From the IMG/VR virus record IMGVR_UViG_3300022198_002714, positions 1 to 64,000 of that record: a stretch of DNA of 64,000 nt; one strand, given 5' to 3'. The position numbers and the translations under genes were made by a program. The notes under the pieces are model-generated. The model was not told where the DNA came from, did no database searches, and saw nothing but the letters and a program-made list of their open reading frames with translations. The DNA comes from a virus. This document shows, one piece after another, positions 4,134 through 62,517 of the stretch (its first letter is position 1; each line of letters opens with the position of its first letter).

Positions 4134-4645
4134 CACATACCCTCCCATATGCCGCTCGGATGACTCCAAACCAATTTTTCCGGGTCAAGATTCGCTTGAT
4201 GTTGTGCAAACGTCTCTTCAAAATCCAACGGTGCTGATTCGTATTCATCTTCGTGCATACCAAGCAACGCAGGTGTGGGGTCTATTCCCATTCTGTCAAT
4301 TGGTTTTGGTAATTTTCCTCGATAACCCATAACCATACCCACAGGGTCACTTGCTGCCGCAAATCCCGACGCACCCTCATGTGCTTCGGGTGTATTGCCC
4401 TTAGCCCACCATGAACCCATTCCGCTAATTGAAAAAGGTGCAATCCCTTCATACGGGTTTGAATGCCACTTTTCAGCATCTTGTGGTTGTACACCCTCAA
4501 TCATATTCTGTGGTACTCGGCCCCCGTGAATCCCTCTAAACGCGGTCACAGGCTCCATACCGGGGTAGTCTTCGATGTAGTTGTACAACTTCATCTGCCG
4601 ACTTGCTTTCAGCAAGGTCCAAGCAGCATCCATTGGACTCATCAC
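4133..4645 (-). CDS. Tagged accessory protein: N-terminal PMDxAW tag, PIP-like peptide, ADP-ribosyltransferase-like domain
   Basis: MMSPMDAAWTLLKA-SRQMKLYNY; VTAFRG...GSWWA...FEETF; more AT-rich than flanking tail genes. Confidence 0.6.
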   Translation of the reverse strand: MMSPMDAAWTLLKASRQMKLYNYIEDYPGMEPVTAFRGIHGGRVPQNMIEGVQPQDAEKWHSNPYEGIAPFSISGMGSWWAKGNTPEAHEGASGFAAASDPVGMVMGYRGKLPKPIDRMGIDPTPALLGMHEDEYESAPLDFEETFAQHQANLDPEKLVWSHPSGIWEGM

Positions 4646-6033
4646 ACTTCCTCCGTCGGTCCCTTGGTCATGCCGATGGGCAAACCGTTGCCACCAATTT
4701 TACCACGTGTACGGGTGCCTTTAACGCCGCCGATGAGAATAGCCGTGTTGTTCACCCTACGGCTCGTAACCGTCGTTGTCACGATGAGGTCCACTTCACC
4801 GAAGAACGACAGGTTATGCCCTACGCGCTGCACGTAGGTCGAAGGACTCTCGTTGTTGCTCATGACCGTCGAGGACTCTCCGATGCCCTGCAACACCCCC
4901 TCAAGGCCCGTTTCAAGGTTCAGCAGCGTTAGGTCGCTTGTGGCTTCAAGCGGGTGGTGAATGATTTCGGTGATGACCTTGTTATTCCCACCGTACTTGA
5001 TGACCATGCCGGGGCGCATGTACGTGAGGTCGAGGTGTCCCGAAGACGTGATAGCACCCTTGCTCAAGGCTTGACCCTTGAGGATTTGACGGGCCACACG
5101 CCGCGCTGCATTTGTGGTACGTACGGTGTGGTCAACAATAGGCGTGGGGCTTTCACGCACTTCCTCAGCCTGACTCTCAGCATCGCTCACGGTGACAATC
5201 ACCAAGTCGTTGAGGGCCAACGGCAAACCCTGTACCGTCACGGTGTTGTCCGAGTTGTCCACAGGTGATTCGCTTTGCGTACCGGTGCGCAGGTTTTCGT
5301 CAATGTTCACGTTGCTCTCGCTAAACGACACAGGTACGTACAACAGGTTGCCGAAGCGGTCGAGCAGAATGATGCGGCTATCGTGCCGCCCAAGGAAGCG
5401 TAGCGCGGTCATGAGGTTCGTGTTGGTGAAGTCTTGACCGACGAAGCGTGTGCTATGGTTGCGGTAGGATGCGGTCAGGTTACGCGGTCGGGACAGGCCG
5501 ATGCTTGTCGTGCCGTTGGTCGCGCTTTCCGCGAGTCTGATGGCAAGGTCGCTTGTGCGCAGACCTACACCGATGGGCTGCCCAAGCCGTACCGAATCGC
5601 CGGTAAAACCAATCCCATTTAACGTGCGACCTTTCATGTTACGGAGTGAAAAAAGCACCCCGTTGCTTGAGGTTGAAATACCATCTCCGATGAGTCGCTG
5701 CGAAAAATCAGACCCATTAAACATCAGCATGGGCTTGTTGGCGTCCGAAAGTACATCAGAACCAAAGAACGGTGAGCCTGCAAACGTGTGACCGGCTGCG
5801 CTCTTATGCGTCAGTTGGACGGTTGACTCACCCTCCACGACCGTGTACTCACGCTCAGGCATGACCTGCAACGTGCGCGTCATGTTTTGCTCAACGGTGA
5901 CCTTGGGTTTGCCACTCTTCTGCACGCTGAGTCGCCCGTAGTGAATGGCGTTATCCACAAACACAGGCTTGCGTACGTGGGTCATGATGGCATCAGGCTC
6001 GCCATCATAGCGTGTGCCTTGTATTACCGTCAT
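4642..6033 (-). CDS. Putative baseplate hub/tail-tip protein
   Basis: ALRFLGRHDSRIILLDRFGNLLY and ARRVARQILK...YMRPGMVI pattern of hub (gp27/Tal-like) proteins; tail-module context. Confidence 0.55.
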   Translation of the reverse strand: MTVIQGTRYDGEPDAIMTHVRKPVFVDNAIHYGRLSVQKSGKPKVTVEQNMTRTLQVMPEREYTVVEGESTVQLTHKSAAGHTFAGSPFFGSDVLSDANKPMLMFNGSDFSQRLIGDGISTSSNGVLFSLRNMKGRTLNGIGFTGDSVRLGQPIGVGLRTSDLAIRLAESATNGTTSIGLSRPRNLTASYRNHSTRFVGQDFTNTNLMTALRFLGRHDSRIILLDRFGNLLYVPVSFSESNVNIDENLRTGTQSESPVDNSDNTVTVQGLPLALNDLVIVTVSDAESQAEEVRESPTPIVDHTVRTTNAARRVARQILKGQALSKGAITSSGHLDLTYMRPGMVIKYGGNNKVITEIIHHPLEATSDLTLLNLETGLEGVLQGIGESSTVMSNNESPSTYVQRVGHNLSFFGEVDLIVTTTVTSRRVNNTAILIGGVKGTRTRGKIGGNGLPIGMTKGPTEEV

Positions 6034-6039
6034 ACAACA

Positions 6040-6855: not shown

Positions 6856-6857
6856 GT

Positions 6858-8369
6858 TCACCACTTCACTTTGTCAGCCCAATACGCCGCACTCAGTTTG
6901 CCACGGCTGATGTTCTTGGCGTGGCGAGCCTTGAACGACTCACGACGCTTGCGGTATGAATCAGACTCGCCTTCCTTCTTTGGAGAGCCGGACACGCCTT
7001 GCTGACCGAAGCGAATGGTCTTGACCTGCCCTCCTTCACGGGCCACGACAACGTGGCTCTTCTTCGGGTGGTTGGGTGTGCGCTTGGGCTTGTTGAAGCC
7101 ACTCACGCCTGCGCGAGCGAGTCGTGGGTCGCGCTCGGCTTTCTGCATGCTGAGTGGCGAGCCGCACGTCTGACATGCACCTGCGGTTGCGGGAGTCTGA
7201 GCCAAGCAGTTCGGGTTGGCACACGTCGCCATGCCTTGTTGTACGCCAATCATTCGACGCTTTACGAGTACGTCGCTCTTCTCGACCTTCTCTTCCTTCT
7301 TGGGACTTCCAAGAGCAATGACCACGACCATGCCTTTCTTTGCCTTCTCTTCCTTCTCGGCTTTTTGAACCCCCACCGGCATTCGGCTACGCAGGTCGTT
7401 CACCATGTTTGCGTACGCGGGGTTCCCGTATTCAAACAATTTCATCTGATTTGGGTCTTGTTGTATGGAAGACAAGAATTGCAACGTGTCACGGGCTTGC
7501 ATGTAATCCGTCATACCACCCTGCCATGCGCGATTAGACAAATCTCCTTCCCACACGTCCAACATGGGTCGGTAGTTCTTTACTCGCTGAGCCAATTCAG
7601 CAAGTTTGTCTTTGTCCACACTACCGAATTGGTTTCGTAGGTTCACACCGTAGTTTGGGTCAAACTCGCCACGTTGGTAATCAATGGGTACGTAGCGATG
7701 ACCACGAAACGAGCGAAAAGCGGGGTCAAATACTCTCACTTGTCCATCTTGCAATCCAACATTGGGACCTTTAGCGTCTGAAAGACTCAAAAATTGCATC
7801 AATGGGTCAGAAACAATTGATTCCACTTCTTGCTCATGTCCGTGAAAATTGTCCCTACCCGGACCAAATACCTTCTCCATCTGTTGTTGTTCAACCGCCC
7901 CACGCACAGGCGTTTCAGGCACAATGGGGAGGTTCATGTCCGCAAGTGCTTGGGAAAGTGCAAGCGTAGCAAAACGATTTGGTGCGTGTGCTGAGTCATG
8001 TGGCACCTTCCGCACAGGTTGAGACTTGTCATCGGGAATTGTAGCGGTGCGATAGAAACCTGAAGTCGTGCGGGCCTTGACAATCGTTGGCTTCCCGCCA
8101 ACGCCCTGCTTCTTTGCACGCTTACGCTTGGTTGCGGCACGCTTCTCACCCTCGCTCATTGAGCCTGATGTACGAGGCGTCTTGGAACTGACCTTGACTG
8201 ATGGGCGACACTTGGGGTAGCCCTTGCTGCTCTTACTTGCCTTGGGGCGACCACAGGGCGGGTGCTTCCCGTCCTTGTCCTTTCGGCTCACGTCCACCCA
8301 CTTTTCCTTGAACCAACGATTCAAGTCCTTGATGACAAGCACATCGTGGCAGGTGCAGCGGTCGCTCAT
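6858..8369 (-). CDS. Modular polyprotein: basic domain, kinase-like domain, Zn ribbon, basic domain
   Basis: LNRWFKEKWVDV..PCGR..YPKCRP; SGFYR..VRKV..SDAKGPN..RVFDP; CANPNC..CQTCG; NKPKRTP..KTIRFGQQG..SFKARH..AAYWADKVKW; ATG at 8369 coupled to the upstream stop. Confidence 0.65.
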   Translation of the reverse strand: MSDRCTCHDVLVIKDLNRWFKEKWVDVSRKDKDGKHPPCGRPKASKSSKGYPKCRPSVKVSSKTPRTSGSMSEGEKRAATKRKRAKKQGVGGKPTIVKARTTSGFYRTATIPDDKSQPVRKVPHDSAHAPNRFATLALSQALADMNLPIVPETPVRGAVEQQQMEKVFGPGRDNFHGHEQEVESIVSDPLMQFLSLSDAKGPNVGLQDGQVRVFDPAFRSFRGHRYVPIDYQRGEFDPNYGVNLRNQFGSVDKDKLAELAQRVKNYRPMLDVWEGDLSNRAWQGGMTDYMQARDTLQFLSSIQQDPNQMKLFEYGNPAYANMVNDLRSRMPVGVQKAEKEEKAKKGMVVVIALGSPKKEEKVEKSDVLVKRRMIGVQQGMATCANPNCLAQTPATAGACQTCGSPLSMQKAERDPRLARAGVSGFNKPKRTPNHPKKSHVVVAREGGQVKTIRFGQQGVSGSPKKEGESDSYRKRRESFKARHAKNISRGKLSAAYWADKVKW

Positions 8370-8530
8370 CAGTACACCCCGACCATTTTCTTGAGATTCT
8401 TTTGTTGATGAAGTAAAGCGTAACAAGGACAACGAGGGGAACTATCGGAGCATTGGTTGCCCTCGTACATGCAGACGCAGGGCGTTTTCTTGGTTGCCCC
8501 GCAGCAACATTTGTCCTTCTTCAGTTTCAC
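8369..8530 (-). CDS. Small Cys-rich basic protein
   Basis: GTG overlapping the upstream stop; KCCCG..PCVC..QC..RCPCY (8 Cys in 53 aa). Confidence 0.55.
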   Translation of the reverse strand: MKLKKDKCCCGATKKTPCVCMYEGNQCSDSSPRCPCYALLHQQKNLKKMVGVY

Positions 8531-8691
8531 TTCTTGTCCCCCTTCTTCTTGCGGAACTTGCCCTGACAGTACTGCACGGCCCAACCGTTCGCATATGCGG
8601 AGGGGTACACCTTGAACTTCCGCTTAGCGGCCTTCTTGCCCGCTTCGCACAATTCCTTCAACACGGCCCAAGATTCGTCCATCGGCGTCAT
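8527..8691 (-). CDS. 54-aa tagged basic protein (not in ORF track)
   Basis: ATGA overlap with the giant gene stop; MTPMDESWAVLKELCEAGKKAAKRKFKVYPSAYANGWAVQYCQGKFRKKKGDKK. Confidence 0.7.
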   Translation of the reverse strand: MTPMDESWAVLKELCEAGKKAAKRKFKVYPSAYANGWAVQYCQGKFRKKKGDKK

Positions 8692-11600
8692 GACGCATCA
8701 CCCGAATGGTCTGATTCACCGTAGTCAACATCTCCTTTATGCCCCTTCGGGTGCAGGGATTGGCTGAATCGAGCCTTCACGGTGTAGTCTGCACGTCGTT
8801 CGGTGTCGTCGCTTTCCGCACTCGTACGCCTACGTGCAGCGTCACTACGATGGTGCTGCAAGGAGTTCTCGCTGATGACAAGCCGAGTCACGTCGTTGTC
8901 CAACTTGCTTGTGTCCATGCCGTTTGAGCCGCCGAGGTTTGGCCCCTTGCTATCGGGCACGGTGTCGCTCGTTGCAATCACCATGTGGTACACAGGCGCG
9001 TAGGGCGGGTTGGTGTCAGGGTTGGTGGCCCTGATGTACTCGCCCGCAGACGCACGTGCTGAGGGCATCTCGTAGGCGTACACGCCGTATTTGCCGCCAC
9101 CCGTGGTCGAGAAGTAGTTGGAGCCGTACTGCGGGCTGCTGCTATGCAGGTTGTTGTTGGGGCGGAACATCTCAACGTGCTGCTCGTCAAGCAGACGAAC
9201 AGGCCTGAACAAGAACGAGATGGTCTTGTCGGTGTGGTTCATCTGCGCTGAAGTACTGTCAAACGTGGACGTAGCATACGGGTTGCTCGCCTTGTCTGCA
9301 CCCACCGGTCCCCAACCGTAGTCGCTGACCGCAGCGAGGTAGTTGCGCGTTTCTGCCACGTACGTGCCACCAAGCGGGTTGAAGTTGCTTGTGTGACTAA
9401 ACCGGGCCACACCACCAACCGGCTGCGCACCAAAGTTCAGTCCTGTATAATCGAGGTTGCCGATGGTCTGCGAGCCTGCGGTCATGCCGCCGACAAGCAC
9501 AACACGCTGCCCTACTCCACGGTCCGCGTGCAGACTGTGCGCTTCGGTGTTGAGTGCGATGAGGTTGTCGTCCACGCCTTCCACGTTCTCCGTGTCAAGA
9601 CCGATACGCGGGGCTGAACGGGACACCGCATCGGTGTGCTTGGTCGAGCCGCTGATGGTTTCCACACGCGGGCTGACGACCGCTTCAGGCTTGAGCAGCC
9701 CGTCCTCGTCAACGCTGAGTCGTGCGCTAATGCCGCGCGGTACCTCGTCGCTCGCCAACTCATCGTTGCGCGGTCGGATGAATCCGTCACCAAACACAGG
9801 CTCAGCGGTGTGGTGCGACAAGACAACGCCGGTTGTGTAATTAGCCTCATCTAACGCGGTCAGCCGGTCTTCGTTGAACTGCGTCGGGTAGCGAATGCCA
9901 CGCCCGTTGCCCATGTCACCTACGCGCATCGCGTTGGCAGGCATGAACACGTCAATCAGCGTGTTCGCGTTGTTGTTATTCGTCGTGTTTTGACGACCAC
10001 CAAAGCGTGGGATGGTGACGCCGGGAGCAAGTGAGATATTACTTGAGGCTGAATCAACAATGCCCTTGAGGTTGACCAACGGTGAGCCGTCGTTGTACAG
10101 TCGTTCGTACGGTGTAGCATCCGTGCTGCGTCCGGGGTCGTAGGCGTCACCCGCATCCCACGCGGGCCTGATGCCGAAGCCGCGCACAGGGAAGCGGCGC
10201 ACGTCCTCACCGCGTGTGTTGCCCCACCAATCCACCAAGTAGTACATCACAGCCTCGTCAATGTTAGCAATCTCCTTGCCGTTGTCGTCGCCCCACCAAT
10301 CACGAATCACCGTGGACTTGTTGCGCAGGGTGCGTACAGGCGCACCAAAAGAGCGCGTCATGCGCATTCCGTCGCTATACCGAACCTGCCGCTCAGCCAT
10401 GTCCACGCCAAGCATGCCGCTAAAGTTGGTCTGCCGTTCCATGATACCCACGTAGGTTTCAGGGTACGTCACAGGCGGCAACGCATTGTGATGCACCCAC
10501 GACTGAGTTTCACGCTGCACCAACGGTCCGTGTTGGTAGTCGGCGGTGTAGTAGCCAACAGTAACACCTGCCCGGTATGCTCGCATCCCATAGAAGGACC
10601 ATTGGGGCTTGTTGTAGGGCTGACGCAGACCAAAGCGGTACCCGAATGGCAACGGGGTGGTTGGGTTGCTGAGACTGTCGTAGGTCGAAGTCGTCACACC
10701 GGTTCCATCTTGCTGCCAAACACGCCGCTCGTAGCCGTAGTCACCCGCATAGGTCCACGATGCTGCAACCGCGCCGTACCCGTCAAGGCTGCTGACAAGT
10801 GGACCACCACGACTACCGCTCGGCCACATGTTGTTGAGCATCACCTTCGTGGAATCATCACCTGAATCGGTCTGTCCACCTTGTGCGACGTACTCCCCGC
10901 TGCTTGTGATGCTTTCAGCCGTTTGTACTGCATTGTTTCCTCCACGGTAAGCAATTGTACCTACCGGGATTTCAGCATCAGGTGTTTGGTCAACGGTAAT
11001 GCTTCCTATTAGACTGACGCTTGCTACCGTGTAGGCACGCCCTGCAATACTGATGACCTCACCTGTAACGATGTTTGTTCCTACGTGCGGTCCTACTTGG
11101 AAAGCAATTCTCTTCGTTGAGGGTGTCACGGAAGTCACGGCTGCGGGGTTACCGTCAAAGGTGGCCTTAACGAGCGGCGGCGGGGTCTTGATAGCCAAGC
11201 CAAAGGGTCCAACGCTACCGAAGTACGGTGCATCGTGGTAGTGAATTGTCTCAAAATGCTCAGGCATTGAGTTGTATGGCTTGTTGTCCACCGCTCGGTC
11301 AGTCAACGGGTTGAGGAACGTGCGGGCTGAATCTGAGTAAAACGTGTACGGTCGCCCAAGGTTGGGATGCCACATGCACAGGAACGCATCAGCCAAGTGC
11401 AGGCTATTCGTATCACGGCTACCTTGCAAGGTCTGAGGTAGCATGCGCGTGATGATGCTTGTCTTGGAGTCAGTAAAGATGGCACCTGACGGGCGGAAGT
11501 CGTACGCACGGGTAAGGCGCAACTTTGTGCCTGCCGTCAAATTGTTGGTAAAGTCAGCATTGGCGGGGTGATTGATGATGACTTGTGTGCTTCCTGCAAT

Positions 11601-14600
11601 CACATCCGTGTACTCAGTTGTACGCCGTACGCCGTTTGCATCTGTGTACTCCAACTTCTGTCCGTAGTAGGGGTATTCAGGGAAGCCGCGAGCATCGTCA
11701 ACGACCACGGCGAACGTGCTTGCACTCACAACGGTTGCAACCGGGTTAAGGCTGATGAGGTTGAACAACTTGGAATACATGTCCGGTGCGCTGCTTGGGT
11801 AGCCTGCGAGTGTGATTTGAGAAGCCACGTTGCCCGCATTTGCACGTGCAAACTCGTAGTAGTTGTCAAAGCGGTGCCACGTCAAATGACGAAAGCCTTC
11901 AGAATCAGCGTGATTTGGTGGCCTGCGGTGTACAATGCTCCACCACGGAATGTTGGTGGTAAGCCCCGGTGTCGCATCAGCAAACATGCCGGGATGGTAG
12001 GGCAGGCTCATGCGCGTGAACGCAGGTGCTTCGGTTTCCTGTACACCGAATGAGTTGTACAGGAGCAGCGGTGGAATGTTGGTGAATTGGCTGCCGTGGT
12101 CGGGGTCGTGGTCAATCATCACTTCGTTGATGAATACTTCACAACCACGCACGTCAGCCTCGGTCGTCTGAGCAAGCACAAGCCCAAGTGCGCCGGTTGT
12201 CCCGTCCACTTCACGAATACCAACAACGAGTGCGACCTGTTGGCTCGTCAATTCGTTTGCTGCGTTTTCGTGATAACCAATGAACTGCGACTTGTTCAAG
12301 TTCGGCTGAATGACAATCTGATACGCACCAACCTCAGCGGGGTCGGGGAAGTGATGCTTCAGCGAATACGTCGCTGCGGCCTCAAGGATGATGGTCTGCC
12401 CACCCTGACTGTTGATGGTTCCCGCTGCACCTTCCGATGCAAGGACACCGTACCCATCGTGGCGTACCTTTGTTTCAAACATCAGCGTGAACGCGCCACC
12501 GTGAATGTCGCTCGGTCCACCCGGAGTGGCGGTCAGCGTACCAATACGCAGTTGTGGGTCAAGACCGAAGAATTGGTCTGTGGTCGTCGTCGTAATGTCA
12601 CTCTTGACTTCATTGAATCCGAGTGACTCCATGAGTGACTGTTCCACGTACTTGTGCGAGGATGCACGAATTGCACGGTGTTTGTCGTACAGGCCTTGGT
12701 AGGCAGGATGCGCCCAATGTCCGGGCAGCATAGCCATGGTCGGCGTGACGTAGTGGTGACCCATACGTGGCAGGGCCATCGGGGTCAACACAGGCTTGGT
12801 AAAGATGCTATGCGCGGTTGTGTTTGCATCCACATTGGTGTAGTACAACGTGTGCGCCATGTCGGGACTGTTGCCGCTCACTTCAGCGTGGTCACGCAGA
12901 CGGCGTGCTGCATAGAAGCGTGTGCTACCCGCAGGCATGTAGTATGAAGGCACGACCTTGAGGCCGCTCACGCCGTTAGCAACCAAGGCGTCAAACTCAG
13001 CGTCACCGACGCAGCCGGTGAACGTGTCACCGCTGATGCCCGTGAACGAGGCCACACCACCCCGGTCGGTAGCAGCATCGTACAGACGAAGGAAGCGGCG
13101 GTTGTCCGCAGCCTCTTGATTCCCGAAGGTCGTGGGGTATAGGGCAGCATCAATCGTCGCATCCACAGTCAGCGTGCCGGACGAGAATCCTGTGGCTGAC
13201 AGGTCGTTGTTCTGCACACCATTTGCATGCGTGTAGTGCGTCGGATAGCGGTGCGTGTGCGTGTTGCCACACTTTGTCACGTGGAAGAAGAGCGTACGGT
13301 CGTGCAACTCGTAGGACGATTCAAGCGGCGCGTTGCCTGTCGCTGCACTCCAACCCTTGCGCGTCATGTCGGGGAAGGCCTCACCGCTTGCAGACTGACT
13401 GATGTGGTCCCATTCGTGGTCGCTATACGTCGGTCCACGACGCGGCCCATCCACCTCATCGGTGAATTGGTGCTTGAGAGCGTCAGCAAGGCCGGGTCGC
13501 ATCATGCCACCGCTGCCCATTGTTTCAGTCTGATAGGCTTGCAGCCGGTCGAATCCTGAGCGCACGATGATGTTGCCCGGAATTGTGTTGGGGTCGGGCA
13601 GGCGCACCTTCAGGTTCGGCTCCACGCCGCTGCCTGCGATAGCAGGGGCAAGCCCTTCTGAGGTGCGGTTGGACAACTTACGGAAGGCCCGAACAATGGT
13701 ACCGAACGGTGAGCCACCCTCGATTGTGTGGATTTGGCCGGTATCATCTTCAACCTCAATTGAATCAAACTGAATCTCTTCGTTGGGCACCATCAGGACG
13801 TTGCGCAACTCGTCGGGGTGGCGAGCAGCAATCTGCGGGTGCGCCAACTCTTGCGCTTGGATGATTGGGAACATGGCCGAGTTGGTCGTTTCAAAGGAGA
13901 AGCGCACGTTGCCGTACAACTTCTCACCCGTGGTGTAGGCAGTACCACCGCTGACGCGGGTGACGAACGGTACACCGCCAAGACCGCGAGCATTCAAGGC
14001 AGGCAGCGACAGGTTGCCGCCGTCCATTCGCTTCCACACGACATGCTCGACGCTGAAGTTGCGCATTGGTGTGCGGGCAAGCGATTCGTAGCCGTTGGTC
14101 TGTGCAAGCCAATAGCGGAGGTCATCGTGCTTGGCGTTGAAGTCGGTACCCCCACCTGCGGTGCGCATGTCCACCATTAGGTTGCGCTCAACCTCACTTG
14201 CATCGTTGAGCAGGTAGGAACCTACGCTCTTGTCCAAGTCGAAGAATAGGTCACCAATTTGCGCGAAAGCAGGCGTAGCGTTGTACAATGAATTGTCGCT
14301 TGACGCACCCAAGTGGAAGTCGTATTGTGCCACTTCAGGGTCATTGGTAGCCGCGCTTGCCGGTGTTGCCGTGCCGCTGACAATCAGGGCCTCGACGTTC
14401 GGTCCACCTGTTGCGGGGGCATAGAACCGTTCAGGACCGTGGATGCGCTCGTCCCATTGCGCGGTACCCGCGAACGTAATGGCCGTTGCAGCAGCCGTAC
14501 CTGCACGGGTCTTGGAGACAACTGCAAGCCAATCACCGGTTGCCGTAATACCGTCACGGTCACGCTTGGCAACTAACGCCAATTCACTTTCATAAGAAAC

Positions 14601-17600
14601 AACGAGGAAGCCCTTGGAGAAGACGCCCTGCGGGTGGTACAACTCGCGCGGGATGCTGAAGTCGGTCAGACTGTTCGTGAGGTTGATAGCACTATCCGCC
14701 GCCTTGTACGCACCCGTGCTATCAGCGTTGTACGCCGTGTACGAAATGCTTCCCGTCTCAACAGTCCATGAATCGTAGGGCGTACCCACGCCGTCATAGT
14801 TTGCATAGACGAGTGATTCAGGAGTGTTGTACAACGCATACGTGTGCGGTACGTGTCCATACGCAGTCATAACAGTCGAAGCCGAGCCGTAGGGAGAGAA
14901 GCCCAACTTTGGATGCCACGCACCACGCCCCGCACCGTAGCCTTCCGAACCAACCTTGAGGGAATTGAGGTACGAGTACCGCTCACCGGACCACCCAACC
15001 GCACCTACCGGACGAGTGCGGTCAATGGCGTCCACAATGCCTGCAAAGTGAACCTGCGTCATGTGGTCGCGCGTAGCGTCGTCCTCGTTGTTGAAGCGAT
15101 GAACACCGGCTTTGCTCCACACGTACACCTTCGTGACACCACTCAAGTCAACTGCGGTGGGCAGGGTTGAGTCATCGAAAGTCTGTGCATCCTCCAATTC
15201 AGGATTGCCTGTCAAACGGTTGGGAGCAAGCCAAAACCGCACCTTCCAAGTTGACGGGAAAACACCAATGTCATAGTACACTTCACGGCTATGGTAGGGC
15301 GCAAAAGCAGGCAAGTCAACCGTGTGGAGCGTACGACCTGCGTTGTCCGTACGAATCCATCCCGATGCGGGCAACTGTTCCAAGATGGCTTGTGTACCAC
15401 CTGAAAGTGTAGCCTCAACGTAGGAGTACGATTTTGTTGCATCAATCGTATAATCATCGTAGTCGAGTTCGACCCAACCGTAGCGGTCCTGCCGCATCGC
15501 GCTGCCCATCGAAGGGAGGTGCGTACCACCCATGGCCTTGAGCGCACCTTTGCCGGGATTTTCGTTGATGGCCTGTCCAAGCAGGGCTGCGAGTTCCTCA
15601 CCGTTCTGACACCGCGTAGCATCCACGACGATAATTTCACGGTCGAAGTCGTCGCCTTCTTCAGCAGATGCACCCGCGAGAACCTGCTTTGCAAGCACAC
15701 CTGAAACACGGAACGCAGTTGGGTTGACCTCGTTCCACGAATCACGGGTCACGCGATAGTCGCTTGGCTCAAGCGGTGCGTTGAATGAGAGTTGATTGTC
15801 AAGCCATGAACCGCCGGGATGGTAGCCGCCGTCCATGTGAAACGTCAAGTCAGCCTGTGAAGCAATACCGTAGCCAACGATGGGTGCGTGCTTGTAGGGG
15901 TGGGCAGCAGCGTAGTCGCTGATATTGAGTGAAGATACCGTGGCTTGCAGGTTGAAGTGTTCACCAAAGTGGTACCCATGCTCGGGCCGCTGCCACAGGC
16001 TGACACCACTCGACACCGCGCCAACGCGAGGGATGCCCTCAGCGGGACTCCAATTCCATGTCGAGTACCAATGGTAGCGTTGACGGTTGCTTTGGTAGGT
16101 TGAGGTTGGTGGGCCGTAGTCGTTCTTGTCGTTGGTGATTGGGTTGGGCAGTTGCTTGCTATGTGGCACCTTGCTCCACGTGTTGCCCACCGTCACGACG
16201 AAACCGGGGTGTGGCTCAACGTCTGCGTTAGCAGCGGTTGTTTCGGTGAAGGGAAATGCTTGGCCCGGTCCATAGATGACGTAGGTGGTGTGGTTGGTGA
16301 TGCTATTGCGTGCATCGTCGTAGCGAGCCGTTGGGTGACCCATGCGCAGCACAAGCGGAATTGGGCGTTGATACACCATACCGGCGGTGTAGCGAGCCGT
16401 AACGTGTGCAGGCAAATCGTTGTGCTTCGTTGCGAATCCTACGTCAACGTCAGTCGTAAGGATGCTATCCTTGTTGTACGCAGGTGGGTGAATAGAGCCA
16501 CGGTGCTGATTGAGTAGCGCGGTACCGGGGAAGAAGGCAAGCAGCGCGTTGCAATCCACCAAAGCGAATGAGGTTGAAATCTCGTTGGCATTCTGAATGC
16601 CCGCAGTACCCGTAGGTCCTGTTGAGTACGGGTGCGTATAGAAGTCAGCGTAGTCGTTCTGCGTACCGTCGTTCACGTCAAGCACGACGCCGCTGAACCC
16701 ACCGCCGAAGTACAATGGTACATCGTGGTCGCTGCTATCCCTTGCGCCACGGAAGTACACGATAGGCTCGGAATCCACGCTTCCGTGCAAACGGTACCCG
16801 TCAAACTCTCCAATTGATGAAATGAAGTAGTAATCCTGATTCAAGGTCTTTCCACCAAACTCATCAAACCATTCATCAGACGCTTCTCTTTCGTTGAAAG
16901 TGAACTCAGTAAGTGCGTTTGCACCTTGGTTAGCAAATACAACTGAGTAGTTATTTCTTGCATGATACAATTGAATCTTCTGACCGAACGCCAACAACCG
17001 GTCCGTTGTGGTATAGGTGCCCGTAATTGTTCGGGTGCAACCCACAATCATTGCATGGCCGAGTTTGTTTGTTGCGGCCATTGTGAACACGTTGCTTGAG
17101 ACTGATTGAGTCTTCAAAAGTGGGTTGCTCAGACAAGGCAGAATGTGGTCACCGGGGCGAGAAAGGAAGCGGACACCCTTGAGGTTCTCATCCCACCGCT
17201 TGAGGTTCACAGGGTCGTTGTATGAATCCACAAGGATAGGCGTAGGTGTGTTGGCATGGTAACCACGACCACGGGTACGAACCTGAACGATGGTACGCGG
17301 AATGTACCCGCACGTCAATTGTTTCGACGATGCAATTTGTGCATCACTTAATGGGGGAATTAGTCCGGCAGTTACGCTCCATGTAGCGCTTGTTTTGGCT
17401 ATTTTTTGATATTCACCGAACTCAATGTGGGCTGCTTGAATACCATAGTCGCGGTGAAGACTTGCGCTGAACATCTGTGAAAGTGGCTTGATTCCACGTT
17501 GCGGGTTATGCGCACGAATGATGATGGCATCTTCACCAACACCCCAATCTCCGAGTGTCCGACCGTCTGCTGCGTACAAATGGCGCACATCAACAGAATA

Positions 17601-48841: not shown

Positions 48842-50329
48842 TCAGGGGGTAAGCCATCCATCAAAGCCTCCTTTTTCTTCCTGATTACCACCACTAAGCC
48901 AATCGGCAAATCCGGGCATGTAGTCGTCAAGCATAACAAGCGAGCCACGGAACTCCTTGGTACCCCAATTCGCCAAAGCAAGGGCCATTGCCAAGTCGTC
49001 GTGCGTACCCACGCTTTCCAACTTCCCGTTTTTCTGCATGCCGAAACGGTTGAGTTCTTGCTCCAACTTGTGCGTGAACTCACGGCTCCGCTCATCCCCA
49101 TAGGGTGTGCGAATCTGACCTTGCTCAAACGCCATGAGCAAGGACATGAACATGGATTCCTTACGCTGACGGGTGGTCATGAACGTCTTGATGGGAATGT
49201 CGTTGCGCATGTCTTGCAGTTCAGCAGCAAACATGCGTTGGAAGTTGTTTCCTTCAAGTTCAATCAAATCAGGTTGGAAGCGGTTGTTCATCATCAGGAT
49301 TTGCCGTTTCTGCGCAGCACCGCTCATTCCACGTTCGTGATGCGCACCAATGATTTGTTTGGTACCGTCATCGGGTAACGTACGTAACACAAGCATAGCG
49401 GTAAAGTCAGCGTTCTTGTCCGAGGCAATAGCCGTGTCCCATCCGATGAAATGCTGACCAAAGATGCCTGTTGATTCACCTTCTTCGTCGTATTCCATTT
49501 CAGCGCGGTCAAGCAACACAAGTTCCTTGTCCCTTGCTTTTTCAAGAATGTCGTTGGGAAACATACTCGCAACGTCGTGAATCGGCTCGCACAGGTATTC
49601 ACGGGAGAATTGAATAGCAGGCATGGAAAGTCGCCGTTGGTCAAGCGATTCCAAATCCCATCGCTCAGGCCACAGGGCTTTTCCTTCGTTGTTGATGGCA
49701 GGGTAGGTTTCAACGGTGAATGCCTCACGTTGCTCAAGTTCTGCGTACAGGTCGTTGTACGAAAAAGGTGTACCAACAATCATCATGCGACCGGAGTGGT
49801 GCAGCACAGGAAGCAGCACACCATAGAACCAATCAGCAGCACGTTGCAATTCAGTACCGGTCGTACCCCACAGAATGTCGTCGCACACAACCACGTTCGG
49901 GTGGAAACCACGGGTACCACCACCCACGGACTTTGCCATCATACGGCTTCCGTTTGCAAAGTCAAAGTAGGTTTTTCGCCACGGTCGCCCTTCGGGAATA
50001 AGGTGTTTCAGACACGGGGTGGTTTCGATGTTGTTGCGAATGAACCGCATGTGTTCAAGCGTCTGCTCAAGTGAGTGGCTGAAAATCATGATGTGAGTGT
50101 TGGGTTGAAACGCCGCAATCCACAGGGCATAGGACATGAAAAACACGGACTTGCCGTGGTCACGGCTTGCTTTGACACAGTAGTAGCGGTTGTCACTCAA
50201 CCCTTTGTCCCAACATTCGTGATGGAACGAATAGTCATAGCCAAGAATCTCGGTGAAGAAGTACCTGAAGGACTTGGCCGACATTTCACGGTCCATCTCA
50301 AGGATGAACTGATTCATGTCTTCCTTCAT
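48842..50329 (-). CDS. terL: Terminase large subunit
   Basis: Walker A SRDHGKS, Walker B VVVCDD, IVGTP, LWPERW, RNase H IGWDTA..DFTA and HDDLAMAL. Confidence 0.95.
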   Translation of the reverse strand: MKEDMNQFILEMDREMSAKSFRYFFTEILGYDYSFHHECWDKGLSDNRYYCVKASRDHGKSVFFMSYALWIAAFQPNTHIMIFSHSLEQTLEHMRFIRNNIETTPCLKHLIPEGRPWRKTYFDFANGSRMMAKSVGGGTRGFHPNVVVCDDILWGTTGTELQRAADWFYGVLLPVLHHSGRMMIVGTPFSYNDLYAELEQREAFTVETYPAINNEGKALWPERWDLESLDQRRLSMPAIQFSREYLCEPIHDVASMFPNDILEKARDKELVLLDRAEMEYDEEGESTGIFGQHFIGWDTAIASDKNADFTAMLVLRTLPDDGTKQIIGAHHERGMSGAAQKRQILMMNNRFQPDLIELEGNNFQRMFAAELQDMRNDIPIKTFMTTRQRKESMFMSLLMAFEQGQIRTPYGDERSREFTHKLEQELNRFGMQKNGKLESVGTHDDLAMALALANWGTKEFRGSLVMLDDYMPGFADWLSGGNQEEKGGFDGWLTP

Positions 50330-51078
50330 CGGCTCAACCTCTTGAGCAAGTAGTCCATCGCATGTTCAAACGGCTCAGCAGAACGATTGAATCGTTGGTC
50401 GTACAGGTTGGTTTGTCCTTGGAGTAATCGCGCTGCTTCAGCGGGGTCAACAGGTGTTCCCTGCTGCTGAGCAGGCTGAGCAGGCTGAGCAGCAGCAGGC
50501 TGAGCAGGAGGTTGTCCCGGCATCGTCGGCAAAACCCCCGCTGCATGTGCAGGGTCAACAGGTGAAGCGGTAGGTGCAGCGGTAGGTGTAGCGGTAGGTG
50601 TAGCGGTTTGAGATGGACCCATACCCGGTAGCATCATTTGGTCCGGTCGGAGTGGGGAACCATCAGGAGCAGTCGCACCCGGTGCAACAGGCTCCATGTG
50701 TGGGGGTTGCTGCTGAGTAGGTGAAGATTGAGTTTGAGGTTGAGTTTGAGGTTGAGTTTCCTTTTGCCTTTCAATGAACTGCCACGGTTGGTTTGCAAGG
50801 TACTGTGCGTACGCACCCATAGGAGCAGCGAGGTTGCCCCCTTGCATTTGGTCTGCAATTTGTTGCGTGGTAGCCGCAGCAGAAAGACCGCGACCTGCCA
50901 AATCAGCAATAGCACCAAGTCTTTGCCATCCTTGCCCTTTCTGACCTGTTTTTCGTCCAAAGGCCACGCCCGCAAGTTCACGAATTGATGGGCCTTTACC
51001 ACCAACCACCAACTGCAAACCGCCACTTGGTATCTGCTGCAACGCAGTTTCAGATTTACGAACGAGTACGGGCTTCAT
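50326..51078 (-). CDS. Q/P-rich protein with C-terminal tag
   Basis: QPQT, TATP and QPA repeats; C-terminal QTNLYDQRFNRSAEPFEHAMDYLLKR. Confidence 0.65.
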   Translation of the reverse strand: MKPVLVRKSETALQQIPSGGLQLVVGGKGPSIRELAGVAFGRKTGQKGQGWQRLGAIADLAGRGLSAAATTQQIADQMQGGNLAAPMGAYAQYLANQPWQFIERQKETQPQTQPQTQSSPTQQQPPHMEPVAPGATAPDGSPLRPDQMMLPGMGPSQTATPTATPTAAPTASPVDPAHAAGVLPTMPGQPPAQPAAAQPAQPAQQQGTPVDPAEAARLLQGQTNLYDQRFNRSAEPFEHAMDYLLKRLSR

Positions 51079-51082
51079 GATT

Positions 51083-53227
51083 TCACCTCATACTTATTTT
51101 AATGACCTTGACGACCTCGGGTTGGACGTTGTACGACTTCGCAATTTTGTGCCAATCACCCATCGTGTGATGAATGTTGGTTACTTCCTCGGAGGTAAGC
51201 CCAACGTATGAAGCCAACTGACGGGAGGACGTGCGGGAAGAACTGAGGTGTTTCACCACGTTGTTGTCCAATTCAGCCTCGCGGTACTGCATTCGCTCAA
51301 GTGCTTTCATCACTTGGTCCATCACAGGCAGATGTATGTCTTCGCTGCGCATGAACTGCGACAACAAAGTTTGGCGTGGGTCAGACAGGCCTGCTTGGGC
51401 GCGTGCTTCAACGGGAGACAACTCAGGCGAAGCAGCAGGCCGCTGCCGACCACGACCTGCGAGGTCGAGCATTTCCCTGAACTGTGCAGGGGTATAGCGG
51501 CCAATGTCCGGTCGAATGGCTTGGAAATCAGCCGACAAGGGTTGAGGTGTCCCTGCGTCTGCGAGCGGCGGAGGTGATGAGCCGCTTGTTGGGAGAGGCA
51601 CCGTAGCCGACGGATGAGCGGACGCCGGTACGGGTGCAGACGCAGGGACTTCTTGTGGTAGGTCACCGGGGTTGTAGTCAGCAAAGTCTTCAACCCACGC
51701 ATAATCGTAATTTTCCATATGTGGCTCAAGCCTAAGTTGTGGCTCAAGCATATCACCGTGATAATTCTGAATGTGCATAGGTCGGCCAAGCGGCTTGTTT
51801 GGTACCTCACCTACGTCTTTTCGCTCATGACCGCGAGCCACCATTTGATGTTCAGCAAGCCCTTCAATTAAACGACGATTGAGATTAACTTGCTCTTGTT
51901 CATCAGGAGCAATACTTTCTAATTGAACGTCACGCAATTTGGAACTGCCGTCTTCGTTAGCGCCAAACATGTTTGCAAGAGCCATGACACGTCCTGCCTT
52001 AGCATGCATACCTGTCCCTTTACCGCTCCCTCCCGCCGTGTAGTACTCGCTATGCTCGTCATGAGAAAGGCCTGAATAATCTTCAAGCCTTCCCATTACG
52101 TTGTTGAACAATTTCATGAAATTGCCTCCTTGTTGGTTTGCTCGACCAAACAAAAACATCATTGCAGGCACCGATGAAATCTCCTTAATGACCGCTTGCT
52201 GATATTCAGGAGTGAGCAGGGCTTCTTGCAACGGTCGTTGGATTCTTTGTCCTTCAAACGTAAAGGTCACAGGAAAATTAGGTATGGCGTCAACATTGCC
52301 TCCACTTAGGGCTTGTCGAATATGGTCTGCCGTCCTTCTTTGCAAATCAATGGCTTCCCTGTTTTGGGGCATTGGTTTGAAAAACACATCAGGAAGATGA
52401 TGCAGCACTTGCCACGTAAATGCTTCTTGTTGTTCTGCGGGTCTGAACTCATCAGGAAACGGAACTTTTGACCCATCAATATACGCGGAGCCGGGGTCAC
52501 GTTGTTCGGAGCGAATGTACTTCGGGGGTGTGGTGTAGTTCGCATATACAAACGGTTTGTCATGCAACAAAAATCTGACATTATGCGCAAGCATGTCAAT
52601 TACTTCAGGTGAAAAATGCTGCTCAAGCAGTTGTCGCAATTCGACGTTGAAGGGTAAGTAGTACGATTCAATGAACTTCCCATTTGGGTTTTCAGCGGCG
52701 TTGTTGTTTGTCAGCAACGTAATCTTGGTGCCGTCTTGCGAACGAGTTGGTCGAGTTGTCTTGTCAGGATGCATTTCCACCTGTTTTGGTAGGGGTGCAG
52801 AACGCAACTTTCGCCATTGAAGGCTCTCAAACGGTGCCAAATGGTGTTTTTCGTTTGGGTGCTTTTGGTTGAACAAGTCAATTGCTTGATTGAAAAGATT
52901 GACAACATCAGGAGATGAAATAGAAGGAACATGCCCTTGCAATGCACGAAGCAAGCGGTATGCAGCCGCATCAATACCGTGTTGGAAAAATCGAGGGCCG
53001 TTTGGGTGGTCCCTTTCACGGGTGTGGTAGTAGTAAATGCCGCCATCGTCTTTGGCCCATTCTCCATCATACACGTTGCCTGCACCATCGTGGGCAAAGG
53101 CAGGTAAGTCCAAGTTTCCCATTGGCTTGAAGGCCGCAGGTGGAGGGTTTCGCATGACGAACCTACCGTTAGGTCCTGAGTGAATCAGACCCCACGCCTT
53201 CTGAATGATGAACGAATTGTACATCAT
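51083..53227 (-). CDS. 714-aa hypothetical protein (PIP-like peptide, degenerate tag, C-terminal HTH-like)
   Basis: Coupled ORF; RQTLLSQFMRSE..PVMDQVMKAL; WHKIAKSYNVQPEVV. Confidence 0.65.
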   Translation of the reverse strand: MMYNSFIIQKAWGLIHSGPNGRFVMRNPPPAAFKPMGNLDLPAFAHDGAGNVYDGEWAKDDGGIYYYHTRERDHPNGPRFFQHGIDAAAYRLLRALQGHVPSISSPDVVNLFNQAIDLFNQKHPNEKHHLAPFESLQWRKLRSAPLPKQVEMHPDKTTRPTRSQDGTKITLLTNNNAAENPNGKFIESYYLPFNVELRQLLEQHFSPEVIDMLAHNVRFLLHDKPFVYANYTTPPKYIRSEQRDPGSAYIDGSKVPFPDEFRPAEQQEAFTWQVLHHLPDVFFKPMPQNREAIDLQRRTADHIRQALSGGNVDAIPNFPVTFTFEGQRIQRPLQEALLTPEYQQAVIKEISSVPAMMFLFGRANQQGGNFMKLFNNVMGRLEDYSGLSHDEHSEYYTAGGSGKGTGMHAKAGRVMALANMFGANEDGSSKLRDVQLESIAPDEQEQVNLNRRLIEGLAEHQMVARGHERKDVGEVPNKPLGRPMHIQNYHGDMLEPQLRLEPHMENYDYAWVEDFADYNPGDLPQEVPASAPVPASAHPSATVPLPTSGSSPPPLADAGTPQPLSADFQAIRPDIGRYTPAQFREMLDLAGRGRQRPAASPELSPVEARAQAGLSDPRQTLLSQFMRSEDIHLPVMDQVMKALERMQYREAELDNNVVKHLSSSRTSSRQLASYVGLTSEEVTNIHHTMGDWHKIAKSYNVQPEVVKVIKISMR

Positions 53228-56178: not shown

Positions 56179-56179
56179 A

Positions 56180-56809: not shown

Positions 56810-56810
56810 G

Positions 56811-57913: not shown

Positions 57914-57918
57914 GTTTC

Positions 57919-58635
57919 TCACACCGTCAACAGGTTGACCATTGTTGGTTCCACGTTCCATCCAATTCGGGTCGCCATAAACGACCTGCGGGTTGGAATA
58001 CCCGCTTTTTGCAAGCGAATAAGGTCATCTCGGAAGGGGTCGAAGATAGGATGCTCTCCAATTCGCCCTTCAGCGTACAATTTGGCCGCAGTATCGTCAA
58101 AATACCGGTCAGCCTTGTTTGCAACAAGCATAATCAGACTTGGAGCGTATGATTTACCGTTCCATCGGCTTTTGAGTGTCCGATATCGGTAATTTCGACC
58201 CGTAATTGCGTCAACAAGGAAGCGAAAGCCTGCAATTTGCTGAATGGCATCGTTTCCGCCCTTAATTGCTCGGTCATCAAACAAATAGACGACTGCACGG
58301 ACTTGCCGGGACACCATATCGTCAATCCACAGGTTCCAAAACCGTTCTTGACCACCAACGTCGGCAGAAAACACAACACGCTTCTCGCCTTCCCAACTTA
58401 CACGCTTGCGAGAAGGTTTTGGCAGCAGGTAACGCCCGAGAATCTTGACATGTTCGGTCCGTTCCTCTTCAGGAATCTCTTCCATTTCCCCCGGAGTGGT
58501 CATGTAGCGGTCAAGGGTGGTTTTGCCGGTCAGTCCTGCACCGTAAATGCCGACTTTGCGCGGCCTCCACGAATTGTACAGGCTCTTGCCCCACACCATT
58601 GCACCGACCAATGCGGTTCCCGCAGGCTCAACCAT
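57919..58635 (-). CDS. Ras-superfamily (Arf/Rab-like) small GTPase
   Basis: G1 GAGLTGKTT, G2 T (ERTEH), G3 DVGGQ, G4 NKAD, G5-like MAT; hydrophobic N-terminal helix. Confidence 0.85.
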   Translation of the reverse strand: MVEPAGTALVGAMVWGKSLYNSWRPRKVGIYGAGLTGKTTLDRYMTTPGEMEEIPEEERTEHVKILGRYLLPKPSRKRVSWEGEKRVVFSADVGGQERFWNLWIDDMVSRQVRAVVYLFDDRAIKGGNDAIQQIAGFRFLVDAITGRNYRYRTLKSRWNGKSYAPSLIMLVANKADRYFDDTAAKLYAEGRIGEHPIFDPFRDDLIRLQKAGIPTRRSFMATRIGWNVEPTMVNLLTV

Positions 58636-58894
58636 TGACCCACCCCGTTAGCCAAGAAGCCAAATCGCCCATCTTGAGCCAAAACCACTTTACGGTGCTT
58701 TCCCATACGCTGCGGTCAGTTCTTAATTCGTACAGGCTTGTCATTAAGACGGCTATGCCGCTGAACACAAGTGTACGAATCCAACCAAGTCCTTTTTCGT
58801 AGTACGTGTCAAGGGTGTTTTGTGTATGCATTGCCCTCAAGGTGGCTTCCGTGGAATCATCCACGGGCGTCTTAAAGATTCGACCCATGTTCAC
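58628..58894 (-). CDS. Small membrane protein
   Basis: TM segment plus Trp-rich amphipathic C-terminus. Confidence 0.6.
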   Translation of the reverse strand: MNMGRIFKTPVDDSTEATLRAMHTQNTLDTYYEKGLGWIRTLVFSGIAVLMTSLYELRTDRSVWESTVKWFWLKMGDLASWLTGWVNG

Positions 58895-59454: not shown

Positions 59455-59504
59455 GCTGCTCAGGCTTGGTCACAGGAATGGTCATCTTAAGGCTTGCGAG
59501 TCAA

Positions 59505-59660
59505 TAGTCACTTTTGTCACCACTTACTTCACCAAAATGAGTATTCACCATTGTACTCTTACACTCTCTCTATTTATTGAGAGTAGTACCTATGAAATAA
59601 TGACAACTCGTTTTGTCATTTACATGAGTAAGGTGGTGACAAAAGTGACAAAAGTGACTA
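59505..59660. repeat. Non-coding nested inverted repeat with GTGACAAAA units (candidate origin/packaging/regulatory site)
   Basis: TAGTCACTTTTGTCACCACTTACT (59505-59528) versus AGTAAGGTGGTGACAAAAGTGACAAAAGTGACTA (59627-59660), plus inner hairpins. Confidence 0.8.
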
Positions 59661-61190: not shown

Positions 61191-61191
61191 A

Positions 61192-62517
61192 TCAATACGT
61201 CCTAAGTTTCTTGTACGCAGCAAGCGCAGATTCTATCATTTCAGGAGACAATTTATCCAAACCTTGTGGGAACGAGCCATGCCTCATGATACCAAGTGGT
61301 GTGTTACTGTATATTGCTTTTGATGCCAACTGACCCGGAATGAACTCTATATTCGATGTAATCTCTTTAACCGATTTATCGTCTGCCTGACGCCTCATAG
61401 CATCAATCAACTCAAGTTTTTCTTCGGTCGTCATCTCACGACCTCCGGGTTGAAGGGGAAAACCTTCCTTGTCGTACGCTCCTTCAAGTGCAGGATGAAT
61501 GGCGGACATTGGAAATTGCGAAGCGTATTCTCGCCATGCTGCTTGTTGTGGACTGACTATTGTTTTGTAAGGATTATCCCTTCTATCAAGCGGATTCAAT
61601 CTTCGTAGCCTCTCTTCAATTGCTGTTGGCTGCATTCGTTCATATGTCATCCAATCCGTATCTTCAGACTTAATTCTCCAATTTGTTGCATTAGGCGTAT
61701 CGCTTTTCCATGAACCACTTGCACGTAAAGGCGTCAAACGACTGTTATCAATGGGTGTCATCGCTACGTATTCGGCGGACTCACCCCCCTTGAATCGTGG
61801 CCGTTCTTGTACCAAATCTCCGGGGTAAAACCCAAGGCCGCGAACGCCAAACAGATTTTCTTTCTTTTCAGAAAGAACCTCATTCATTTCTTTTACATTG
61901 GGTGGAACAAGAAACTGCATGGGCATGCCTTCTTCTGTCTTATATCTGTAAGGTAAAGGGTTGCTCACGTTTTCCTCATAAGAACCAACGTAACTTCGTC
62001 CACTCATAGGGATGAGTTGACCACCGGGAGTGGTCATGACACGCGATGCAATGTCTCCTGTGAAGCGGTATGCGTTGATGGGTGGGATTGAGCCGGGAAT
62101 TACCGTGTTGGTCTGCGGGTCAAGCCACCGCTCGGTGGTCAAACCCGGAATCAGTTGCGGTAGTTTCATCTGCGTGGTAAAACGCACGTTGGGCGGGCTT
62201 TCCCTACCGGCTTCCCAAAGCATACTGTTTGGGTCAAAATCAGCCTGAGCATTCGCTTCGCCTATGTTGAGAATATCTCTCACGGTATTACCGTAAGTGT
62301 AGCCAAAATCCGGACGGCGGGTAAAATCATCAGGGTCAATTGAGTCTTCATACACCGTTTCCATGGTCGGAAACTCAAGCGATTCAGTAGGAACGTGAAT
62401 GGGACCTAAGTACTCACCCCTGTACCTGTTGCGCGGATTTTCAGGAAAACCAAAGTCGCCGGTAAGGGTCGTTTGCCGCTTCAGCAAACGCCATGCCGAC
62501 TCCATTGGGTCCAACAC
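61192..62517 (-). CDS. Tagged protein: N-terminal tag, PIP-like peptide, ART-like domain
   Basis: DPMESAWRLLKR-QTTLTGDF; NAYRF..GRSYVGS..EYVAMTPIDNSRL; SD GAGGTGA. Confidence 0.6.
   Translation of the reverse strand: MLDPMESAWRLLKRQTTLTGDFGFPENPRNRYRGEYLGPIHVPTESLEFPTMETVYEDSIDPDDFTRRPDFGYTYGNTVRDILNIGEANAQADFDPNSMLWEAGRESPPNVRFTTQMKLPQLIPGLTTERWLDPQTNTVIPGSIPPINAYRFTGDIASRVMTTPGGQLIPMSGRSYVGSYEENVSNPLPYRYKTEEGMPMQFLVPPNVKEMNEVLSEKKENLFGVRGLGFYPGDLVQERPRFKGGESAEYVAMTPIDNSRLTPLRASGSWKSDTPNATNWRIKSEDTDWMTYERMQPTAIEERLRRLNPLDRRDNPYKTIVSPQQAAWREYASQFPMSAIHPALEGAYDKEGFPLQPGGREMTTEEKLELIDAMRRQADDKSVKEITSNIEFIPGQLASKAIYSNTPLGIMRHGSFPQGLDKLSPEMIESALAAYKKLRTY

Follow-up and report, generated by a model that had tools for sequence, protein, structure and literature searches.

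Of the archaeal viruses in the surface ocean, the magroviruses are among the most abundant; they are uncultured, and most of their proteins are without known function. In the phages T4 and RB69, C-terminal clamp-binding peptides on gp43, gp33 and gp55 tie late transcription, and via gp55–gp17 packaging, to the sliding clamp gp45, while the T4 internal proteins IPI–III carry a capsid targeting sequence (CTS) that is removed by the gp21 prohead protease. The canonical PCNA-interacting (PIP) box reads Qxx[LIMV]xx[FY][FY], e.g. QGRLDDFF in FEN1, QTSMTDFY in p21 and QSTLYSFF in MSH6 (PMC6881253). The magrovirus replication module comprises PolB, a sliding clamp, RFC, AEP primase, MCM and ligase (PMC5434244; Aoguangviridae profile in PMC10768690), and all magroviruses are reported to encode a sliding clamp of low sequence similarity (PMC5434244). 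Here we describe PIP-like peptides in a stretch of viral DNA that we assign to a magrovirus, namely bases 1–64000 of the 89,752-bp IMG/VR viral contig IMGVR_UViG_3300022198_002714, which is rated 83% complete; this whole stretch is called the window. Neither PMC5434244 nor PMC10768690 mentions PIP-like peptides, the small zinc-ribbon protein coupled to PolB or the AW-LK tag with which some of the peptides are associated.

An initial annotation of the window had listed five PIP-box-like peptides: QMKLYNY, QMKLFEY, QTLLSQF, QTTLTGDF and QTNLYDQRF. All five are found letter for letter at their listed positions in the minus-strand translations, and none in the plus-strand translations. On sequence grounds we read them as part of a real, short PIP-like linear motif of magroviruses that is selected at the protein level, with the consensus [KR]-Q-x-x-L-x-x(x)-[FY] and RQTTL as its commonest core. 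QTTLTGDF, QMKLYNY and QTLLSQF would be good members of this motif, QTNLYDQRF a degenerate one and QMKLFEY a doubtful one. Features in common with the canonical PIP box are the Gln of position 1 and the aliphatic residue of position 4 (all five peptides), an aromatic residue at position 7 or 8, an apparently flexible or terminal location, a frequent preceding K or R, and conservation limited to just these positions. In contrast, the window peptides have one aromatic residue, variable spacing and acidic or neutral C-terminal flanks, sit on late or structural carriers and are paired with the AW-LK tag, a short element of the form P[MF][DE]xA[WFM]xxL[LK] present in 11 strong copies in eight open reading frames (ORFs) of the window.

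The RQTTL core and the replication module

The evidence for selection on the peptide comes foremost from its core. RQTTL occurs in six different ORFs (longest-ORF calls throughout) of G000 and G003, against 0.07 expected, an ~80-fold excess; G003 (101 kb; terminase 85% identical) and G002 (103 kb) are complete close relatives of the present virus that include PolB. Every copy is followed by F two or three residues past the L, and the codons differ each time. Because of these differing codons a DNA-level repeat is ruled out as the source of RQTTL, and selection is indicated to act on the peptide.

Copies of the form RQTTLxx(x)F without a tag occur in two small replication-module proteins and, at internal sites, in G003 proteins. 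A small ORF of ~75–85 residues, the start of which overlaps the last PolB codons, is present in 11 related contigs (4869–5123 of locus L061, plus strand in the locus, equivalent to G003 73416–73670 on the minus strand; also L058–L060, L062–L066, L068 and L069). It contains a CxxC pair of the zinc-ribbon type and, past this pair, MRQT[TK]L[DN]EF[FM], usually together with a second peptide, QKRL[TY]D[YF]; its RQTTLDEFF is a textbook PIP box. Likewise, a protein of ~100 residues encoded downstream of a PD-(D/E)XK nuclease carries [VFYM]RQT[TS]Lx[KE]F[LM] (FA in G004). PolB of G002 and of G003 has no terminal PIP-like motif, and the small zinc-ribbon ORF may encode an accessory subunit that tethers the magrovirus PolB to a clamp. 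The late peptides KRQTTLTGDF, SRQMKLYNY, KRQKKLSDF and PRQTLLSQF resemble the replication-module peptides and have the flavour [KR]QxxLxx[FY] in common. Beside the PolB-adjacent MRQTTLDEFFD, the motif peptides that we singled out are RQTTLTGDFGF, ASRQMKLYNYIEDY and DPRQTLLSQFMRSED.

PolB and the clamp region lie outside this record, since the record is cut at the thermosome gene; no polymerase gene is present in the remainder of the contig beyond the window. Pfam searches of ten replication-module ORFs of G003 detected no clamp. The nearest named ESM Atlas neighbours of a 253-aa ORF directly upstream of PolB in G003 (76035–76796) are gp45-type sliding-clamp clusters (0.93–0.94), an output that serves as a lead and not as a test. 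A genome-contig scan with the viral thermosome fragment, made with host PIP boxes in mind, returned no Poseidoniales genomes.

Two further observations may be added. Outside the window, a 118-aa protein (4599–4955 of L002, plus strand; record positions 87599–87955) ends in QSYIDDFI (QSYIDEYI in G002), a C-terminal PIP-like tail in a DNA-repair setting, directly upstream of a pyrimidine-dimer glycosylase of the T4 endonuclease-V type. EEE C-termini are common among the replication-module proteins of G002 and G003; the simplest account is that they probably reflect the ribosome-binding sequence of the next gene.

Conservation in the carrier families and adjacency to the AW-LK tag

The Q, L and aromatic positions are kept in homologues of four of the five carriers (the 170-, 441-, 714- and 250-aa proteins), so that the conservation on which the initial annotation had staked its proposal was indeed found. 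The homologue sets consist of mutually related sequences, and their counts are not independent events. The 714-aa protein (ORF 51083–53227, minus strand) is the most informative case. A profile-free scan of 1.8 billion representatives yielded 92 relatives, 56 of which were aligned; these are distant members, with a mean column identity of 16%. The best-conserved short motif of the family is that of DPRQTLLSQFMRS (51344–51382, minus strand; QTLLSQF is residues 619–625), which reads DPxQxxLxx[YF] and continues with [MLV][KR]S. Of the sequences, 52/54 retain P617 and 51/52 retain Q619; position 622 is always hydrophobic (L35/F10/I4/W2), 45/46 have Y or F at position 625 (Y25/F20), and the x positions vary freely. 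PIP position 8 is M, L or V in 34/55 sequences and is never predominantly aromatic. A hidden Markov model (HMM) of this family's motif gave no significant scores on the other Q-motifs.

In the AlphaFold2 model of the 714-aa protein (mean predicted local distance difference test score, pLDDT, of 82), the N-terminal domain is confidently predicted and residues 522–562 form a disordered Pro/Ala/Ser-rich linker. The motif area (624–633) falls below pLDDT 50, between this linker and a confident C-terminal part that is helical with a helix-turn-helix (HTH); residues 622–631 are drawn as a helix. Neither Foldseek against the PDB nor a profile search of PDB sequences matched the protein, its confidently predicted N-terminal domain of ~480 residues included. 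VIA-align gave only weak HTH matches, to residues 674–714 (Z 3–3.9), and the C-terminal three-helix HTH has a weak likeness to the DNA-binding domains of transposases, GcrA and small terminase; judged from this model, the 714-aa protein could be a DNA-recognition partner for packaging. After the motif comes the tag-like helix PVMDQVMKALER (51293–51328, minus strand). Because three truncated family members (P0035, P0058 and P0062) end just past the motif in a true C-terminal tag, e.g. PMDGALDVLKR, the long-form helix is probably a diverged tag.

In the adjacent 250-aa protein (ORF 50326–51078, minus strand), QTNLYDQRF (50389–50415; residues 222–230) stands five residues ahead of the C-terminal tag PFEHAMDYLLK (50341–50373). 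Its counterparts are QTGLFTY in G001 and QKMLKAFI in the distant G003 homologue, each again ahead of a C-terminal tag-like helix. The initial annotation had supposed that cleavage at the tag exposes the motif; this gains no support here, and the motifs of the 714- and 250-aa proteins precede the tag-like helix rather than follow it.

The two peptides said to lie right after a tag do so, and both are within 25 residues of the N-terminus. QTTLTGDF(GFP) (62443–62475, minus strand; the octapeptide is residues 15–22 of the 441-aa ORF 61192–62517) holds the RQTTL core and starts one residue past the tag PMESAWRLLK (62479–62508). Among 10 homologues of this protein Q15, T17 and L18 are invariant and F22 is kept in at least 90%; the variants include QQTLAQYG in the distant P0010 and, in the G003 homologue, QTRLSDFY, a canonical PIP box. 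ESM Atlas gave no usable match for the 441-aa protein. QMKLYNY(IEDYPGMEPV) (4547–4597, minus strand; the heptapeptide is residues 17–23 of the 170-aa ORF 4133–4645) starts four residues past the tag PMDAAWTLLK (4607–4636) and forms the core of the block LKASRQMKLYNYIEDYPGxEPVTA[YF]RG, which varies little or not at all among 18 members with ~40% identity elsewhere; RQMKLYNY itself is the same in all 18. The AlphaFold2 model of this protein is uninformative (mean pLDDT 49). At the nucleotide level the block has some synonymous variation; the codons of QMKLYNYIEDYPG (4547–4600, minus strand, and L007–L040) show few synonymous changes (CCC 19/19, GGT 18/19, AAG 19/19), while neighbouring four-fold sites vary freely; an added nucleotide- or RNA-level constraint may act on these codons.

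The weakest case is PNQMKLFEYGNP (7419–7454, minus strand; QMKLFEY is residues 329–335), in the variable middle module of the 524-aa protein (ORF 6858–8432). The G001 homologue lacks residues 121–356, the module called kinase-like in the initial annotation, and has 33 nt between the two flanks; in G002 and G003, alignment with the homologue is confined to residues 25–119. By its behaviour in these comparisons the module resembles an inserted cassette. QMKLFEY is kept in a single homologue (P0030, 78% identical), as QTKLFEY, and beyond QMKL[FY]xY the 524- and 170-aa proteins have no homology. Pfam and PHROGs assigned no family to the 170-, 441-, 714- and 250-aa carriers, and for the 524-aa protein gave only DUF5872, PHROGs of unknown function and a weak minor-head-protein match. 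The idea of enzymatic cargo thus found no footing, none of the carriers having an enzymatic domain by these searches.

In the window the tag is located at N-termini, internally (often past ..TGE) and at extreme C-termini. Across three magrovirus genomes an HMM built from the window's own copies found ~40 tags; the structural region of halovirus HVTV-1 has none. The tags are concentrated in the genome's late half and share a strand with the S78 prohead protease, portal and terminase. Within 14 residues past the tag, Qxx[LIM]x{2,3}[FYW] follows 7/40 copies, compared with 0.73% of background windows. In all fetched loci the after-tag cases belong to four families: the 170- and 441-aa proteins, a 198-aa tandem paralogue carrying RQT[TE]LGEFHPDFP and a 292-aa protein just outside the window carrying RQKKLSDFM. 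Their mutual similarity is restricted to the N-terminal 20–50 residues, e.g. 17 aligned columns between the 170- and 441-aa families (hhalign), and 41% identity over 56 aa (E 1.6e-7) between the 170- and 198-aa neighbours of G003. The four families possibly share a homologous N-terminal module, and since they are alike at the N-terminus only, the after-tag excess may represent one inherited long-form leader instead of four independent gains. In L009 and L021 longer ORFs (600 and 239 aa from stop to stop) have the 170-aa module as their C-terminal part, attached at a ..QTGE/PMD.. tag, which indicates that the tag marks joints between swappable modules. Overall, the motif appears to sit in flexible segments, either just past an N-terminal AW-LK tag or between a Pro/Ala/Ser-rich linker and a tag-like helix.

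We also compared both elements with other clamp-binding motifs. The tag was rejected as a PCNA-interacting motif of the AlkB homologue 2 type (APIM; [KR][FYW][LIVA][LIVA][KR]): it reads A-W-x-[LFI]-L-K, with no basic residue before the W and one extra residue between W and K. The Q-motifs do not fit the APIM consensus either. The bacterial beta-clamp-binding motif (QL[SD]LF) was likewise rejected, because the L at +3 does not give QLxLF and because portal, thermosome and magrovirus gene content point to an archaeal host.

Possible docking on a sliding clamp and competing explanations

The leading single reading, which we hold tentatively, is PIP-like docking with a sliding clamp as the partner. 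The peptide would fold on binding, its Q, L and aromatic side chains entering a pocket of a hub protein, much as a PIP box binds in the hydrophobic pocket beneath PCNA's interdomain connector loop. The best candidate for the hub would be a sliding clamp, whether host PCNA or a divergent clamp of the virus itself. Host PCNA should be available, as the host is presumably archaeal. Clamp docking would explain why the same peptide is found in replication accessory proteins and in late tagged proteins, because one partner would serve both, and it also fits the pattern of conserved positions.

Several observations weigh against docking on a clamp. The DPxQ of the 714-aa family can also be taken for a helix N-capping box of the classical kind. 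By counts alone, the five peptides would be noise: Qxx[LIM]xx[FY] occurs 13 times in the window compared with 8.3 ± 2.8 when each protein is shuffled (fraction at or above the observed count, 0.07), and the widest definition of the initial annotation 16 times compared with 12.1 (0.17). The enrichment in tagged over untagged proteins that had been anticipated did not appear either, the density of the loose motif in three magrovirus genomes being 0.67 and 0.68 per 1000 aa respectively. Any of these proteins yields ~0.7 loose Qxx[L]xx[FY] matches per 1000 residues, and matches of this kind are uninformative without evidence of conservation and position. None of the five peptides fits Qxx[LIM]xx[FYW][FYW]; positions 7–8 are Y-I, Y-G, F-M and D-F (QTTLTGDF having its aromatic at position 8 only), with QTNLYDQRF out of register. 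Canonical relatives of these peptides, QTRLSDFY and QTTLDEFF, are found only outside the window. Spacing shifts even within orthologues (QTTLTGDF/QQTLAQY/QTRLSDFY; QTNLYDQRF/QTGLFTY), which a general amphipathic helix should tolerate better than the PCNA pocket. Positively charged flanks modulate the affinity of PIP boxes for human PCNA (PMC6881253). The after-tag motifs follow a K or R, yet on their C-terminal side they are acidic (IEDY, RSED); flanks that are acidic there and not basic overall count against binding of the human-PCNA type (PMC6881253), although the probable true PIP box next to PolB is acidic on its C-terminal side as well. The conserved block of the 170-aa protein spans ~30 residues, longer than a linear motif requires, with unusually low synonymous change. 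The carriers belong to the late/structural half of the genome and are without a DNA-metabolism domain, the sole exception being the weak C-terminal HTH of the 714-aa protein. Finally, the PCNA_N (PF00705) and PCNA_C (PF02747) profiles match nothing in this record or in complete relatives, so that the literature and the ESM Atlas lead are the only sources for a clamp in this lineage.

Next in rank, and somewhat unlikely in our estimate, the Q-motif could be the second half of a long-form leader, an AW-LK helix plus RQxxLxx[FY]..P inherited as one N-terminal module of ~20–50 residues, that serves procapsid loading and/or recognition by the prohead protease in the manner of the T4 CTS and involves no clamp. 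The confinement of the after-tag cases to four families that are alike in their N-terminal stretch alone, the fusion of the module behind other modules at ..QTGE/PMD.. junctions (L009, L021) and the position of the tags on the strand of the late genes all suit this explanation, as does the adjacency of the 714- and 250-aa motifs to tag-like helices. As in T4, one short amphipathic peptide of ~10 residues is common to unrelated proteins of a single virus, mostly at the N-terminus, in a genome with a prohead protease. A leader nevertheless leaves unexplained the tag-free RQTTLxx(x)F peptides in the two small replication-module proteins and at internal G003 sites, and the motif must be dispensable for the tag's role, since 33/40 tags lack it. 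Unlike the CTS, magrovirus tags are also internal and extreme C-terminal, the latter a misfit for a cleavable N-terminal leader. The protease enters in another way if the peptides are themselves maturation sites, with the bond after Gln cut (RQ/TT, and ..IQ/TGE ahead of internal tags) to remove a leader or to split polyprotein modules. Q-T does recur both past tags (RQTTL) and ahead of internal ones (V/I-Q-T-G-E-PMD), and the protease gene is present. Such cleavage would, however, not account for L at +3 and an aromatic residue at +6/+7, nor for the motif in replication-module proteins, and P2 varies freely in the 714-aa family; we know of no S78/HK97-type protease that cuts after Gln, and we regard this explanation as very improbable.

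Ranked between the leader and cleavage after Gln, and unlikely to our minds, is that each peptide starts an amphipathic helix (N-cap, hydrophobic residues at i, i+3 and i+4) kept for the fold or oligomerization of its own family, the likeness to a PIP box being a coincidence aided by the pattern search. The near-background counts, the variable spacing and position 8, the suitability of DPxQ as a capping box and the helix drawn at 622–631 of the 714-aa protein are what this predicts. The canonical form occurs twice in the window (0.8 in shuffles), both times outside the proteins listed in the initial annotation, and other matches are conserved in the absence of any context that suggests a clamp (QNTLDTYY/QNTLDNYY, QIELWAYI/QFELWAYM). 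Family-specific helices do not, on the other hand, account for the ~80-fold over-representation of RQTTL with different codons in six proteins, for the position-specific excess past tags, or for fixed Q, L and Y/F amid free x positions in 56 distant sequences; a pLDDT this low despite high conservation would also be unusual for a packed helix. On balance, clamp docking ranks ahead of the leader extension, which ranks ahead of family-specific helices and chance, with cleavage after Gln last.

If docking on a clamp is correct, a more far-reaching arrangement can be drawn by analogy, although we consider it doubtful. One PIP-like peptide (RQxxLxx[FY]) would be carried by replication accessory proteins and by late AW-LK-tagged proteins, two of them encoded upstream of terminase; virion or packaging proteins would ride the viral clamp or seize host PCNA after injection, and replication would be coupled to late functions, as by T4 gp45, through a code of tag plus PIP-like peptide. 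The two systems would be alike in that a virus with its own clamp places a single short hydrophobic peptide on many proteins other than the polymerase, some of them with late functions. In contrast, the T4 peptides form the very C-terminus and have no Gln, and no late transcription factor has been identified in the magrovirus.

Genomic setting and implications

Gene content supports the assignment of the window to a magrovirus, a tailed virus of marine Poseidoniales archaea. Every long gene except the first is on the minus strand. By Pfam and PHROGs the window encodes a truncated thermosome subunit at its left edge (6–806), a tail-tube-like protein (28599–30452, minus strand), the S78 prohead protease (37107–38480, minus strand), portal (45721–47493, minus strand), the terminase large subunit (48842–50329, minus strand), directly upstream of which the 714- and 250-aa carriers are encoded, and an HMG-CoA-lyase-like gene (63492–63998). 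The rest of the contig adds an SNF2 helicase, phosphatases, DUF932 and the pyrimidine-dimer glycosylase. Portal matches are to archaeal tailed viruses only, some infecting methanogens, the others being the haloviruses HVTV-1 and HCTV. The group A magroviruses of Poseidoniales, as described by Philosof et al. 2017 (PMC5434244), carry a halovirus-like head module along with a thermosome subunit and an SNF2 helicase, and HMG-CoA lyase is among the genes listed for Aoguangviridae (PMC10768690). Together with PMC5434244, the portal relatives make an archaeon of the Poseidoniales the presumable host. A provirus in a cellular genome was ruled out, as this is an IMG/VR viral contig in which thermosome and HMG-CoA lyase are known magrovirus cargo.

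Three other features stood out. A single 5520-aa ORF (8688–25250, minus strand) accounts for a quarter of the window's length; the tail-end genes lie on one side of it and the head module on the other. The canonical match QNTLDTYY (58799–58822, minus strand), which the initial annotation did not list, belongs to an 88-aa ORF (58628–58894) in a cluster of GTPase and membrane-protein genes and has the counterpart QNTLDNYY in G003. In L054 (G003 90542–92308, minus strand), five small genes stand in tandem, each starting with MIDTDKYEGH.

A conserved docking peptide common to replication-module and late proteins would be a first experimental handle on the uncultured magroviruses. Should the clamp be its partner, the peptide would connect injected or packaging proteins of an archaeal virus with a hub of replication. 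If the clamp is not the partner, the motif would still be a second element of the tag system, marking proteins that act via a common partner.

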